This document shows positions 3,943-60,686 of a DNA stretch of 64,000 nucleotides, one piece after another. Positions within the stretch are counted from its first letter, which is position 1, and every line of letters starts with the position of its first letter. Below the pieces are notes generated by a model. That model did no database searches, was not told the DNA's origin, and worked only from the letters and a program-made list of their open reading frames with translations. The position numbers and the translations under genes are program-made. The stretch lies in the NCBI RefSeq assembly GCF_051903065.1, contig NZ_CP178438.1; one strand, written 5' to 3'. The DNA is from Escherichia coli. GTDB lineage: Bacteria > Pseudomonadota > Gammaproteobacteria > Enterobacterales > Enterobacteriaceae.

Positions 3943-3973
3943 AAAAAGCCTGCTTTCTAGCAGGCTTTTTGCT
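3943..3973 (+). terminator. Rho-independent terminator after tRNA-Asn
   Basis: Stem AAGCCTGCT...AGCAGGCTT followed by TTTTGCTTT; a diverged copy of the 1537-1564 terminator. Confidence 0.65.
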
Positions 3974-18331: not shown

Positions 18332-18435
18332 CCGTTATCTCCTGATACACCTTAGATCTATAAGGCTACGCTAGCGTATCAAAACTGACAATTCATTCTA
18401 TGAATGAAATCGAAACGGTTAGCAAATATACCATT

Positions 18436-18535
18436 GCCTGATGCGCTCCGCTTATCAGTCCTACAAAAACTTCAATATATTGAATTTACGCAACATTTGT
18501 AGACCAGATAAGGCATTCACGCCGCATCCGGCAGG
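18436..18535. repeat. REP/BIME palindromic units
   Basis: GCCTGATGCGCTCCGCTTATCAGTCCTACA ... TGTAGACCAGATAAGGCATTCACGCCGCATCCGGCAGG; same family as the REPs inside the colanic acid operon. Confidence 0.65.
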
Positions 18536-18689
18536 AACAAAGCCCACTTTAGTTACAGAACACAATGTTCTTGAGGGTTTTAAAGACATATTTTCACGAT
18601 TACTTCTCTAACGTAGTCACTCCAGGCCCCCACCTTTCCCCGCTCATTCATTAAACAAATCCATTGCCATAAAATATATAAAAAAGCCC

Positions 18690-18869: not shown

Positions 18870-18908
18870 AAAGCCCCCGGAAGATCACCTTCCGGGGGCT
18901 TTTTTATT
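18870..18908 (+). terminator. his attenuator terminator hairpin
   Basis: AGCCCCCGGAAGATCACCTTCCGGGGGCTTTTTTATT between hisL and hisG. Confidence 0.88.
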
Positions 18909-23297: not shown

Positions 23298-25375
<2,078 letters not shown>

Positions 25376-25382
<7 letters not shown>

Positions 25383-25987
25383 CAGAACAACAACGCCGCG
25401 AACTGGACTGGGAAAAAACCGACGGACTGATGCCGGTGATTGTGCAACACGCGGTATCCGGTGAAGTGTTAATGCTGGGCTATATGAACCCGGAAGCTCT
25501 GGACAAAACCATCGAAAGCGGCAAAGTCACCTTTTTCTCCCGCACTAAACAGCGACTGTGGACCAAAGGCGAAACGTCGGGCAATTTCCTCAATGTGGTG
25601 AGTATTGCCCCGGACTGCGACAACGACACGTTACTGGTACTGGCGAATCCCATCGGCCCAACCTGCCACAAAGGCACCAGCAGCTGTTTCGGCGACACCG
25701 CTCACCAGTGGCTGTTCCTTTATCAACTGGAACAACTGCTCGCCGAACGTAAATCTGCCGACCCGGAAACCTCCTACACCGCCAAACTGTATGCCAGCGG
25801 CACCAAGCGCATTGCGCAGAAAGTGGGTGAAGAAGGCGTGGAAACCGCACTGGCAGCAACGGTACATGACCGCTTTGAGCTGACCAACGAGGCATCTGAC
25901 TTGATGTATCACCTGCTGGTGCTGTTGCAGGATCAGGATCTGGATTTAACGACGGTAATTGAGAACCTGCGTAAACGGCATCAGTGA
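25376..25987 (+). CDS. hisI: Bifunctional phosphoribosyl-AMP cyclohydrolase / phosphoribosyl-ATP pyrophosphatase
   Basis: [38 protein letters not shown]... Confidence 0.95.
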
Positions 25988-26001
25988 GTTGCGGGGTAAG
26001 T

Positions 26002-26070
26002 GGATGCGATGTTGTTGTCGCATCCGGCAAAAAAAACGGGCAAGGTGTCACCACCCTGCCCGTTTTCTTT
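26002..26070. terminator. Bidirectional terminator between hisI and wzzB (two adjacent hairpins)
   Basis: GGATGCGATGTTGTTGTCGCATCC followed by AAAAAAAACGGGCAAGG...CCCTGCCCGTTTTCTTT, with A/T runs on both sides. Confidence 0.75.
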
Positions 26071-26083
26071 AAAACCGAAAAGA

Positions 26084-27064
26084 TTATTTCGCGTTGTAGT
26101 TGCGTAGAGCATTACGCCCCAGCACAATCCCCGCGCCAACCATGCCGCCCAGCAGCATCGCCAGAATCAAGGTGATTGCCTTTTTCGGACTATCGCGACG
26201 AATAGGTAACGTCGGTTTCATCACATAACGGTAAGCATGAATATCAAGATCATCAACTTTTAAGCTTTCGATATCCAGCAGGTTTTGACGAGTCTGATAG
26301 TAGTTTGGCGAGAACACCAACGGACGGGTCGCCTCATGCTTAATCATCGACTCCAGCGCTTCGCTCCCCAAAAGGAACAACGTATCTTGCGTGATATCTT
26401 CGCCAGTCTGTTGAATTTGCGGTTTTGTCACCTGCGCCTGATTCGCATACTGCAACGCTTCCTGAATCTGACGGATACGCAGATCTTTCTGCTCTTGCGC
26501 GACTACTTCCTGAGTTCTTAAAGAGTCCTGCAAGTTTTTCATACGCAGCGCGATGTTGTCTTTCAGGTCTTTTTCCAGCTCTACGTTTACCTGGTCGTCA
26601 ACTTGCTGGATATACTTCGCCAGCTGCTTCTGAGCACCTTCAGGTGTTTCACCAACATAAGACACCGCTAAAGGTAATGACTGATTTTTAACGGTAGGCT
26701 CAATGGTCAGCTTTTCTGCTTCTTCCTGGTTATCCAGCGTTTCCGCTAATGCTGAGAATGCAGTGCTGTAACGTCCGATAAGCGAAGCCTGAATGTCGGA
26801 GACTTTCGGTACAGCCGGACCGTAAATCACATTCATCGCGTTGGTATAACCAGCGATTTGCCCCACATCAGGTTGAGTAACGATAGCTGTGGAAGTCCAC
26901 TTTTCTTTGGCAACGGCCAGATACCCTATAGCCAGGGCAATAGCCACAATGACAGAGATGATAATTGTCATCTTGCCGCGCCACAACTGCACCAGTAAAT
27001 CAATCAAATCAATCTGTTCCGGGTCATGGTTTTGCCCAGAAACATTATTATTTTCTACTCTCAT
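26084..27064 (-). CDS. wzzB: O-antigen chain-length determinant (Wzz, polysaccharide co-polymerase)
   Basis: MRVENNNVSGQNHDPEQIDLIDLLVQLWRGK... with N- and C-terminal TM segments; the track ORF is extended 19 codons. Confidence 0.9.
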   Translation of the reverse strand: MRVENNNVSGQNHDPEQIDLIDLLVQLWRGKMTIIISVIVAIALAIGYLAVAKEKWTSTAIVTQPDVGQIAGYTNAMNVIYGPAVPKVSDIQASLIGRYSTAFSALAETLDNQEEAEKLTIEPTVKNQSLPLAVSYVGETPEGAQKQLAKYIQQVDDQVNVELEKDLKDNIALRMKNLQDSLRTQEVVAQEQKDLRIRQIQEALQYANQAQVTKPQIQQTGEDITQDTLFLLGSEALESMIKHEATRPLVFSPNYYQTRQNLLDIESLKVDDLDIHAYRYVMKPTLPIRRDSPKKAITLILAMLLGGMVGAGIVLGRNALRNYNAK

Positions 27065-27210
27065 CATTACCCTAACGGACGAAATAATTTTAAGTCGCCA
27101 TAGTTTAGCGATAATCGCCATGAATGCTATAGGATAAATGATAAAAATAATGAATTATTACAAAGGGAACATAAGAGAATCAGGGCGAAAATCGCCCTGA
27201 TAACAGGATG

Positions 27211-28377
27211 TTAGTCACTGCCAAAGAGATCGCGGGTGTAGACTTTGTCTGCCACATCCTTAAGCTCTTCTGCCATACGGTTGGAAATAATGACGTCGGC
27301 TTGTTGTTTGAAGGTGGCGAGATCTCGTTCCAGGCGAGAGTTGAAGAATGAGTCTTCTTTCATCACCGGCTCGTATATGATCACTTCAACGCCTTTCGCC
27401 TTGATACGTTTCATAATCCCCTGAATGGAAGACGCACGGAAGTTATCTGACCCGCTCTTCATAATCAGACGATAAATACCCACCACTTGCGGCTTGCGTG
27501 ACAAAATGGCATCGGCAATAAAATCTTTACGTGTGCGGTTAGCATCGACAATTGCCGAAATCAGGTTATTCGGCACAGACTGGTAGTTCGCCAGTAACTG
27601 CTTGGTATCTTTCGGCAGACAATAACCACCATAACCAAACGACGGATTGTTGTAATGGTTGCCAATACGCGGATCGAGACAAACGCCTTCGATAATCTGG
27701 CGAGTATTCAGACCTAAACTTTCTGCATAGCTATCCAGTTCATTAAAGTATGCTACGCGCATCGCCAGATAGGTATTAGCGAAAAGTTTAATCGCTTCTG
27801 CTTCAGTGGAGTCGGTAAACAGTGTAGGGATATTTTGCTTAATCGCGCCTTCCTGTAACAACGCAGCAAAACGTTCTGCGCGTTCTGAACGCTCACCAAT
27901 GACAATACGTGAAGGATGGAGATTATCGTAAAGGGCTTTACCTTCACGGAGAAATTCCGGAGAGAAAATAAGGTTATCGATACCCAGACGTTCTTTAATT
28001 GATTTGGTGAAACCTACCGGAATTGTAGATTTAATCACCATTACCGCGTTGGGATTAATTTCTGTCACATCACGGATGACCGCTTCCACGCTTGAGGTAT
28101 TAAAATAATTTGTTTTCGGATCATAATCGGTAGGCGTGGCAATAATAACGTAATCGGCATTTTTATACGCGTCATACTTATCTGTCGTAGCGCGGAAATT
28201 GAGATCTTTAGTCGCCAGATACTCTTCAATCTCCTTATCAACAATCGGTGACTGCTTCTTGTTAAGCATGTCCACTTTGGCCTGAACGATATCCAGTGCA
28301 ACCACTTCGTGGTTTTGCGCAATCAGAATACCATTTGAAAGACCAACATAACCTGTTCCTGAAATTGTTATTTTCAT
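27211..28377 (-). CDS. ugd: UDP-glucose 6-dehydrogenase
   Basis: [29 protein letters not shown]... Confidence 0.92.
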
Positions 28378-43409: not shown

Positions 43410-43597
43410 GCCTGATGCGACGCTGGCGCGTCTTATCAGGCCTACAAGACCCGAGCACAGAACCGTAGGCCGGATAAGGCGTTCACGCCGCATCCGGCAT
43501 TCAGTGCCTGATGCGACGCTGACGCGTCTTATCAGGCCTACAGGTCCCGAGCACAGAACCGTAGGATGGATAAGGCGTTTTACGCTGCACCCGGCAA
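43410..43597. repeat. REP/BIME cluster (about 4 units) between wcaK and wzxC
   Basis: Repeated GCCTGATGCGACGCTGGCGCGTCTTATCAGGCCTACA... / ...GGATAAGGCGTTCACGCCGCATCCGGCA units. Confidence 0.8.
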
Positions 43598-48012: not shown

Positions 48013-48115
<103 letters not shown>

Positions 48116-58431: not shown

Positions 58432-58465
58432 AGGTTGTTCTCCCGGCTTATGAGCTGGTTTGCTT

Positions 58466-58520
58466 GCCGGATGCGGCGTGAACGCCTTATCCGGCCTACG
58501 GGGCGGTGCGAATGCAGGCG
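58466..58520. repeat. REP element between wzc and wcaA
   Basis: GCCGGATGCGGCGTGAACGCCTTATCCGGCCTACG. Confidence 0.7.
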
Positions 58521-58523
58521 TCG

Positions 58524-60686
58524 TTATTTCGCATCCGACTTATATTCGTATTCGTAATAGCCATAATCCTGATACGCGCTGGCGCGGCGGATGATGGAGT
58601 TCAGAATCACCCCTTTCACCGGAATACCGTTTTGCTCAAAGCGGCTCAGACTGGTTTCCACTTCTTTCAATGTGTTGACCGCATAACGCGCCACCATTAA
58701 CGTGGTTCCGACATGACGACCAACAATTGCGGCATCGGTCACTGCCAGAATCGGCGGCGTATCAATCAACACCAGGTCGTAGTTTTTACTCGCCCAGTTC
58801 ACCAGTTCGGCAAAGCGTTCGCTCATCAACAATTCAGAAGGATTTGGCGGTACCTGACCGCGCGGGATCAGGTCAAATTTGGCAATCGAAGTGGGTTTAG
58901 CAGCGGTAGTAATATCGCCCTGACCAATCAGAATTTCCGACAGGCCATTGACGTTATTGGTGCCCAACAGCTCGTGGGTGTAGCCTTTGCGCATATCGCA
59001 GTCGATCAACAACACGCGTTTATTGGTCTGGCTGATCACCGCCGCCAGGTTGGCGCAGACAAAGGTTTTACCGATTGACGGGCTAACCCCGGTCATCATC
59101 AACACATTGTTCTGCGCCTGCATCATCGCGAAGTGCAAACTGGTACGAAGACTGCGGATGGCTTCAATCGCCAGATCGGTTGGATTCCCCACCGCCAGTA
59201 GCTGGCTCTGTTTATAGCGTTTAACTCCTTTGATGGTTTTGACGCTATCGCGCGCTTTTTGCCACTCCGACAGAGGAATACTGGCATAGACGCTGATGCC
59301 ATGTTCTTCCAGCACCTGTGGGCTTTCGATGCCGCGATTAAACAACGAGCGCAGCAGTACACCCACGATAGAAAGCATCAGGCCGAGGATAATCGCCCCA
59401 AGGATAATCAGCCCTTTCTTCGGTTTCAGTACACCTGGCTGGGTGATTGCCGGGTCAACAATGCGCACATCGCCGACGGTGCTGGCTTCGGTGATTTTCA
59501 GCTCCTGCTCTTTATTCAGCAGTTGCATATAGACCTGCTGACCAGACTCGACATCGCGGGTCAGACGGACAATCTCCTGCTGGGTTTTCGGCATCGCCGT
59601 TACGCGACCGTTAAGTTTGGCTTTTTCGTCTTCCAGCGCCTGACGTTTCTCCAGCAGCGTGCGGTACGCCGGGTGAACTTTGGTGTAAAGTTTGGAGATT
59701 TCCGCCTCTTTAAAGGTTAGTTCGTTCAACTGCGCGTCGATGTTCACCATCGAATCGAGCACCGCTTTCGCTTCCAGCGGCAGATCAACGGAATCTTTAT
59801 CCTGACGGAAGGTATTCAGTTTGTTTTCGGCAACATCGAGGCGGCTACGTACTTCCGGTAACTGTTGCGCGAGGAAAGCGAGGCTTTTCGACGCTTCCGC
59901 CGATTTGCGCTCAATATTTTGTTCCTGATAGTTACGGGCGATGCTGTTAAGAATGTCGCGGATCTGTTCGCGATCTTCACCGGTATAAGTCAGGCTCAGT
60001 ACGCCTGCGTCTTTGCCGTTCTCCGTTACCGTCAGGCTGTTTTGCAGTTGGTTGATCATCCCCAGCGTGGAGTATTTGGTGATGGTAAACTCACTGCCCG
60101 GGCTGGCGTGAATAGCTTCAACCATCAGCGTGACGCCTTCTTTTGTCAGCATCTGGCCCGCTTGCCCACGGGCGCTAAAGCTGCCATCGCTGCTCAGAGT
60201 GTAGTTTTTATCGTCCAGCACATTAAGCGTAAACACCTGGTCCGCCATCTCTTTCGGGCGGTTAAAGGTAGTCACTTTCACCGTCTCGTTCTGCCGTCCC
60301 ATCAGGCGATCCCAGCCCGCACCGAAAATCGGGAACGTGTTTTTGCTCACCGCAATATCGAGGTCGAGATCGTCCACCGTTTTACCAAGCACCAGACGCG
60401 AACGAATCAACTGGATCTCGGCGTCCGATGCAGGCGGTTTGTTGGCTAATGCCGAGCCGATATCCTGTACTAACGAATTGCCGCTGTTTTGCTCGATTTG
60501 TACCAGTGCGTCGGCACTATAAATCGGCGTGGCGAAGAAGGTGTAAACCACGGCACAGACGGCAAATACAGCGGTGATGCCAATCACCCACCAGCGCGCT
60601 TCAATGACGGTGCCGACCAGGCGACCAATATCGATTTCATCACTGCCCGTTACCGGAGCGGCATGTTGTTTTACTTTTTCTGTCAT
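58524..60686 (-). CDS. wzc: Tyrosine autokinase / polysaccharide co-polymerase
   Basis: Internal ATG gives MTEKVKQHAAPVTGSDEIDIGRLV...; Walker A GVSPSIGKT and a Tyr-rich C-terminus YGYYEYEYKSD. Confidence 0.92.
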   Translation of the reverse strand: MTEKVKQHAAPVTGSDEIDIGRLVGTVIEARWWVIGITAVFAVCAVVYTFFATPIYSADALVQIEQNSGNSLVQDIGSALANKPPASDAEIQLIRSRLVLGKTVDDLDLDIAVSKNTFPIFGAGWDRLMGRQNETVKVTTFNRPKEMADQVFTLNVLDDKNYTLSSDGSFSARGQAGQMLTKEGVTLMVEAIHASPGSEFTITKYSTLGMINQLQNSLTVTENGKDAGVLSLTYTGEDREQIRDILNSIARNYQEQNIERKSAEASKSLAFLAQQLPEVRSRLDVAENKLNTFRQDKDSVDLPLEAKAVLDSMVNIDAQLNELTFKEAEISKLYTKVHPAYRTLLEKRQALEDEKAKLNGRVTAMPKTQQEIVRLTRDVESGQQVYMQLLNKEQELKITEASTVGDVRIVDPAITQPGVLKPKKGLIILGAIILGLMLSIVGVLLRSLFNRGIESPQVLEEHGISVYASIPLSEWQKARDSVKTIKGVKRYKQSQLLAVGNPTDLAIEAIRSLRTSLHFAMMQAQNNVLMMTGVSPSIGKTFVCANLAAVISQTNKRVLLIDCDMRKGYTHELLGTNNVNGLSEILIGQGDITTAAKPTSIAKFDLIPRGQVPPNPSELLMSERFAELVNWASKNYDLVLIDTPPILAVTDAAIVGRHVGTTLMVARYAVNTLKEVETSLSRFEQNGIPVKGVILNSIIRRASAYQDYGYYEYEYKSDAK

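Follow-up and report, generated by a model that had tools for sequence, protein, structure and literature searches.

The convergent genes hisIE and wzzB are in all probability separated by a single bidirectional Rho-independent terminator at positions 26029-26070, formed by one hairpin (hairpin 2) together with the A8 tract before it and the T-rich tract after it; the neighbouring hairpin 1 would be no part of this terminator but a diverged REP-type palindrome (we put the probability of this reading at about 0.88). Positions are those of the window, the whole stretch of 64,000 nucleotides of Escherichia coli DNA that was analysed. Gene names and coordinates come from a mechanical list of open reading frames (ORFs) and the RefSeq annotation of the identical genome NZ_CP083585 (strain ECNB21-M121), to which a 701-nt stretch around the site is 100% identical, the identity to K-12 being 96%.

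In the orientation of the window, yeeZ and the his operon (hisLGDCBHAF-hisIE) on the + strand are followed by wzzB, ugd, gndA, an O38-type O-antigen cluster, galF and the colanic-acid genes on the - strand. The last gene of the his operon, hisIE (25376-25987, + strand, stop codon TGA at 25985-25987), converges with the gene for the O-antigen chain-length determinant, wzzB (26084-27064, - strand, 326 aa in the RefSeq annotation, stop codon at 26084-26086; the mechanical ORF reaches 27121), and this leaves an intergenic spacer of 96 nt. Mechanical ORFs of 52 and 63 aa cross the spacer and overlap both hairpins. An Rfam E-value scan of 25000-27500 returned chance-level matches only (E 0.11-2.9, all far below the gathering scores), so that no known RNA family is present in that interval. 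In the MG1655 record no feature is annotated in the hisIE–wzzB spacer, and REPs were not seen annotated elsewhere in that record either. We also note that the yefM-yoeB toxin-antitoxin genes, which lie between yeeZ and hisL in MG1655, are absent from the window strain, and that between yeeZ and hisL a 217-nt segment (window 18409-18625) with a REP pair (18436-18532) replaces a 658-nt MG1655 segment (L098:707-1364).

Structure and scoring of the two hairpins

A preliminary description of this DNA had placed two hairpins between hisIE and wzzB in the interval 26002-26070, and both are present there (26002-26025 and 26037-26062). The 96-nt spacer folds with -38.7 kcal/mol on the + strand (z -4.5) and -46.6 kcal/mol on the - strand (z -7.5), and on either strand the fold consists of exactly these two hairpins. 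Taken alone, hairpin 1 reaches -15.3 (+) and -13.2 (-) kcal/mol and hairpin 2 -16.3 (+) and -21.7 (-) kcal/mol; for the spacer on each strand, and for each hairpin, 0/200 shuffled sequences were as stable. A riboswitch- or attenuator-like alternative pairing of the two hairpins was considered and rejected, as each forms independently in the MFE and centroid structures of both strands.

Hairpin 1 starts 14 nt past the hisIE stop codon and is a perfect 8-bp palindrome of 24 nt overall, in which the arms GGATGCGA (26002-26009) and TCGCATCC (26018-26025) enclose the 8-nt loop TGTTGTTG (26010-26017). Hairpin 2 is separated from it by 11 nt and consists of CGGGCAAGGTG (26037-26047), the loop TCAC and CACCCTGCCCG (26052-26062); on the + strand it has a GC-rich stem with an internal A·C mismatch and a 4-nt loop, and on the - strand 11 uninterrupted pairs, one of them G·U. 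The preliminary description had given both hairpins A-runs upstream and T-runs downstream, which proved correct for hairpin 2 alone. This hairpin is bracketed by the A8 tract (26029-26036), which read on the - strand is the U8 of the wzzB terminator, and by TTTTCTTT (26063-26070, + strand), the U-tract of the his operon terminator (tail score nT 4.06). Hairpin 1 has no such runs: on the + strand GGGGTAAGT stands before it and GGCAAAAAAAA (GGC, then an A-run) after it, with no T-run, and on the - strand the next sequence is ACTTACCCC / ACUUACCCC, with no U-tract.

We scored every T-rich tail of the window on both strands with a value d that combines hairpin energy and tail, using the modern energies of ViennaRNA in a formula of the type of d'Aubenton-Carafa et al. 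1990, so that the absolute values are approximate. On this scale d exceeded zero at only 13 of about 800 distinct candidate sites in the whole window. Hairpin 2 on the - strand (tail UUUUUUUU, score 5.14) ranked first of the approximately 800 sites with d +57.2, and on the + strand (tail UUUUCUUU, score 4.06) it had d +17.3; the his attenuator at 18873-18899 gave 53.7 for comparison. Hairpin 1, lacking a U-tract, was strongly negative on both strands, at -62 (+) and -59 (-). A built-in consensus promoter and terminator scanner, the stem model of which disallows internal mismatches, called the - strand site alone, with a shortened stem; it missed the + strand site because this model rejects the A·C mismatch of hairpin 2. 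The check by terminator prediction on both strands that had been proposed is thus positive for hairpin 2 on each strand and for hairpin 1 on neither.

On both strands, therefore, hairpin 2 has the features of an intrinsic terminator, a GC-rich stem with a short loop and a U-rich tract immediately 3′ of it, and it also has those of a bidirectional one, with an A-tract that mirrors the T-tract and convergent genes on either side. The element is asymmetric, being strong toward wzzB and moderate toward his.

Two other sites in the window carry hairpins that score on both strands and look like further bidirectional terminators, one at 3948-3965 between ldtA and a tRNA-Asn gene and the other at 1540-1558 between cbl and a second tRNA-Asn gene. 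Past ugd, the hairpin TCAGGGCGATTTTCGCCCTGA (window 27180-27200, - strand) has a weak T-tail (score 3.5), so that some ugd transcripts may continue into wzzB.

Transcript ends at the site

In the mechanism that we propose, a polymerase arriving from the his side would transcribe hairpin 1, the A-tract and hairpin 2 and be released in UUUUCUUU, at a predicted position of approximately 26069-26071. A polymerase arriving from the wzzB side would transcribe AAAGAAAA, the same palindrome (here as a perfect stem) and U8, and be released at approximately 26033. With these two release points the his and wzzB mRNAs would share about 40 complementary 3′-terminal nucleotides. Hairpin 1 would be confined to the his 3′UTR when wzzB termination is efficient, would be a remnant or partner of the REP pair (BIME) that other lineages carry between it and the terminator, and would at most act as an extra 3′-exonuclease barrier for the his mRNA.

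The - strand release point agrees with published data for K-12. The MG1655 Term-seq list in supplementary file 1 of Adams et al. 2021 (PMC7815308) has a dominant 3′ end at 2097270 (-), for which the sequence TCTTTTCGGTTTTAAAGAAAAAGGGCAGGGTGGTGACACCTTGCCCGTTTTTTTGCCGGAT is given, running ...GGGCAGGGTGGTGACACCTTGCCCGTTTT/TTT. Coordinate transfer puts this end at the fourth residue of the homologous U7 tract after hairpin 2, or approximately position 26033 of the window. It is entered twice, and by the order of the tabs apparently for LB at OD 0.4 and for M63 glucose, without LB at OD 2.0 (PMC7815308). It should be noted that the end is labelled there as ‘antisense to hisI’ because its distance from the wzzB stop codon is 51 nt and the limit used by the authors for ‘primary’ ends was 50 nt.

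On the + strand, the MG1655 Term-seq lists of the same publication call the his attenuator end at 2090132 (+) but no 3′ end at the his terminator. This missing end is weak evidence because in those media his transcription mostly ends at the attenuator, and it may reflect a low level of full-length his mRNA rather than a lack of termination. Judged by the sequence, and by analogy with Salmonella, his transcripts would also be terminated at this site in E. coli. The TERMITe supplements hold no hisI or wzzB entry. Two further Term-seq ends at 2098243 and 2098289 (-) (approximately window 27006 and 27052) fall in the first 60 nt of wzzB and may be premature ends or sites of processing near the beginning of this gene; 2098243 (-) has a Rho score of 0.6 and an intrinsic-terminator score of 1.9 (PMC7815308).

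Conservation of the terminator and variation beside it

A HisIE scan of 100,044 species genomes produced 80 loci, with no Salmonella locus among them, and in 13 of these wzzB is convergent and directly follows hisIE (Citrobacter, Enterobacter, Pseudocitrobacter, Pseudescherichia, Rahnella, other Enterobacteriaceae and a second E. coli). Each of the 13 loci (13/13) has one element consisting of an A-run, a GC-rich hairpin and a T-run, in spacers of 38-116 nt, as exemplified by AAAAAAACCGGGCAAGCCCGGTTTTTTT in Pseudocitrobacter and Pseudescherichia and by AAAAAAGGCCGCTAATGCGGCCTTTTT in Enterobacter sp. Ag1. The stems cannot be aligned from genus to genus, and an architecture that is kept while its sequence turns over is as expected of a functional terminator. 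No second hairpin was found in the non-Escherichia spacers among the 13 loci, and in the hisIE/wzzB spacers compared hairpin 1 occurs only in Escherichia. Among species with a scoring his terminator (n = 37), the opposite strand also scored as a terminator in 24/27 cases where the next ORF is convergent and in 3/10 where it is co-directional (Fisher p ~0.001, with heuristic ORF calls and species that are not independent).

Within E. coli, the stretch upstream of the A-tract varies freely and the terminator core does not. The core beside wzzB, GGGCA[A/T]GGTGTCACCACCCTGCCC, is unchanged in all E. coli alleles read, and in hairpin 2 the bottom pair C26037-G26062 alone varies (e.g. G to T in K-12). 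One variant is a long form with a spacer of 185 nt, carried by 1197 or more of the 5426 complete genomes (at least 22%) including Nissle 1917 and O25:H4 strains, in which a REP pair of approximately 89 nt (Z2-like + Y) lies between hairpin 1 and the A-tract, the insertion point corresponding to window 26027/26028. Long-form loci were read in Nissle 1917 (L003:588-774), in the O25:H4 strain 18044 (L093) and in one further locus (L092), and E. albertii (L006) has the same REP pair. In strain 18044 the 10-nt direct repeat TCGCATCCGG stands on both sides of the REP pair and doubles as the hairpin 1 3′ arm and the tail of the Y unit, so that the short form of the window is the expected product of a deletion between the repeats, or the long form that of the matching insertion. 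Strain 2009C-3133 (L086) combines the 5′ arm of the Nissle type with a REP-tail 3′ arm, and from its sequence this hybrid looks like the expected product of such a deletion from a long form.

Hairpin 1 itself also varies. E. coli SCPM-O-B-8794 (L007:2612-2708) has the 8-nt loop exactly inverted, CAACAACA in place of TGTTGTTG, with the arms unchanged; this form occurs in at least 29 complete E. coli genomes at 99% identity or more, and the sequence suggests what looks like a palindrome-mediated (template-switch) inversion polymorphism. Counts of short-form variants (megablast with 121-141-nt queries) are lower bounds only, probably because low-complexity masking hides the A-run and an exact seed of 28 nt is frequently lacking, and the long-form count is more reliable. 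In the Nissle-type hairpin 1, GGTGTGA/TCACACC, both arms differ from the window and pairing is kept, whereas the stem is degraded in 2009C-3133 and in the E. albertii locus. We note that the inversion and the paired changes are no proof of selection on RNA structure because both are typical of template switching inside palindromes.

Insertion sequences have entered the same stretch in single strains. In AST215 (L094, NZ_AP043621.1 2294300-2296300) the IS110-family element IS621 lies in the first REP of the pair, at GGGCCT^CTAC, and approximately 1.3 kb now separate hisIE from the terminator; IS621 is known to target REPs and this insertion fits that preference. In M21170 (L095, NZ_CP133919.1 2063300-2064700) an IS200C is located within the A-tract, GGCAAA^IS200^AAAAAAACGGGC, between hairpin 1 and the terminator. 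This IS200C carries its own hairpin and T-run motifs at both ends.

The sequence of hairpin 1 suggests a REP origin. It is identical to the Y-type REP units of the window (43467-43501 and 58465-58500) at 19 of 28 positions without gaps and has GGATGCG...CGCATCCGGCA in common with them, the terminal CGCATCCGGCA being exact, and its 3′ arm and flank, (G)TCGCATCCGGCA, correspond to the end of a Y-type unit. Counting one-mismatch relatives, the 10-mer CGCATCCGGC is present 17 times in the window where 5.9 are expected, and the matches sit at canonical REPs near 18436-18532, 43410-43515, 48014-48111 and 58466-58539. Hairpin 1 is therefore best described as REP-derived and not itself a REP. It shares Y-unit sequence with REPs and BIMEs of the Y and Z types, and in other strains is adjoined by a canonical Z2-like + Y pair; however, a REP has a GTAG/CTAC flank and an imperfect palindrome of approximately 35 nt, whereas hairpin 1 has the upstream flank GGGTAAGT, is perfect and is shorter (24-28 nt). 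It is also single-copy where REPs have many copies: the 121-nt spacer has a single match in each genome, compared with a median of four matching places for the long-form REP pair.

Alternative readings and significance

The preliminary description had regarded the tandem hairpins together as the terminator, in which case both would work in both directions, with hairpin 1 backing up the stop when wzzB transcription reads through and giving his transcription an initial stop or pause. Both hairpins are indeed stable, and their 11-nt separation would place them in a catalogued class of terminators with hairpins less than 50 nt apart (the ‘U-shaped’ class of WebGeSTer), but we consider a tandem terminator very improbable. 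Hairpin 1 lacks a U-tract on both strands and scores accordingly (d -62/-59), is absent from the non-Escherichia spacers among the 13 loci and thus dispensable elsewhere, is split off from hairpin 2 in at least 22% of E. coli genomes by the REP pair and in single strains by IS, and has a degraded stem in some strains. What holds of the earlier claim is the two-way action, and for hairpin 2 only, where it rests on the d values for both strands (+17.3/+57.2), the Term-seq end on the - strand and the recurrence of the element across species. A quite different possibility is that transcription stops mainly by head-on RNA polymerase collisions or by Rho, and not by hairpin and U-tract. A collision model has been proposed for bidirectional terminators of convergent E. 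coli genes (bioRxiv 10.1101/2022.10.23.513370), and bicyclomycin data identify a Rho-termination region antisense to hisF/hisI at MG1655 2096632 (-), approximately window 25394 (PMC7815308). This region is consistent with antisense transcripts inside the his operon, which could be wzzB read-through that gets past the terminator and is later halted by Rho. Against this, the site has the complete anatomy of a canonical intrinsic terminator on both strands, the measured - strand end lies exactly within the U-tract, no Rho-termination region was found at the hairpin 2 site in PMC7815308 file 2, and the wzzB 3′ end is sharp in rich medium though his is weakly transcribed there. Neither mechanism is needed to explain the site, and we hold it to be highly unlikely that either is the main one.

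A third reading concerns hairpin 1 and not the terminator: it might be a functional REP-like element of the his 3′UTR which blocks 3′→5′ exonucleases once the tail has been trimmed, with variants that tune his expression, and which could also influence hisIE translation termination because it starts so soon (14 nt) after the stop codon. The gap-free match to Y-type REPs and the position beside a REP pair in other strains are consistent with this, as is the pairing kept in the Nissle-type variant despite changes in both arms, and REPs are reported to make the mRNA upstream of them more stable and to go together with higher expression where gene pairs converge (bioRxiv 10.64898/2026.03.23.713779). 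However, paired changes and the loop inversion in SCPM-O-B-8794 also arise by template switching without RNA selection, some natural variants have a degraded stem, and a recent preprint describes REP effects as context-dependent with no general effect on half-life. On balance we regard such a function as possible but rather unlikely, and prefer to see hairpin 1 as a diverged REP-type palindrome beside a single terminator.

The terminator formed by hairpin 2 has close counterparts. tonB/P14 is one of the bidirectional intrinsic terminators that lie between convergent genes of E. coli. Bidirectional intrinsic terminators form the ‘X-shaped’ class of WebGeSTer, and a genome-wide SEnd-seq class of bidirectional terminators was described by Ju et al. 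2019, as summarised in bioRxiv 10.1101/2022.10.23.513370. Hairpin 2 resembles such E. coli terminators in having one GC-rich palindrome flanked by an A-tract and a T-tract, converging transcripts and overlapping 3′ ends, and nothing essential is different. Its own trait is the asymmetry, with a perfect stem and U8 for wzzB and an A·C mismatch and interrupted U-tract for his. The his terminator of Salmonella typhimurium carries the title description ‘Convergently functional, Rho-independent terminator’ (Carlomagno, Riccio and Bruni 1985, J Bacteriol 163:362), and in one of two papers that cite that work a figure legend calls the Salmonella histidine operon terminator (His-T) the strong terminator of an engineered construct. 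The likeness to hairpin 2, as far as these descriptions go, lies in the position at the end of the his operon, the Rho-independent class and the two-way working. The Citrobacter stem, CCGGGC..GCCCGG, is shorter than and different from that of E. coli, and the E. coli stem therefore probably also differs from that of Salmonella. REP/BIME sites have long been recognised as a major source of intergenic polymorphism in E. coli. The his–wzzB terminator is already known, and neither it nor the adjoining polymorphic REP/BIME site is new in kind.

Transcripts of the his operon and of wzzB would both end at this site, which would thereby shield histidine biosynthesis from transcription coming from the O-antigen region. 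What can usefully be corrected is the role of the two hairpins: only one is the terminator, and the other belongs to a REP/BIME hot spot that differs by E. coli lineage, which is relevant to the design of his and wzzB 3′ constructs and to the use of the spacer as a typing or recombination landmark beside the O-antigen cluster; it matters little beyond the correct annotation of the his–wzzB spacer. We can also imagine, though we think it quite doubtful, that the hypervariable sequence leading from the hisIE stop codon to the A-tract acts as a lineage-specific dial for the 3′ stability of his mRNA, for hisIE translation termination or for antisense RNA produced by wzzB read-through. Were this so, the gain or loss of REPs would alter histidine-pathway expression or the expression of O-antigen chain length between phylogroups.
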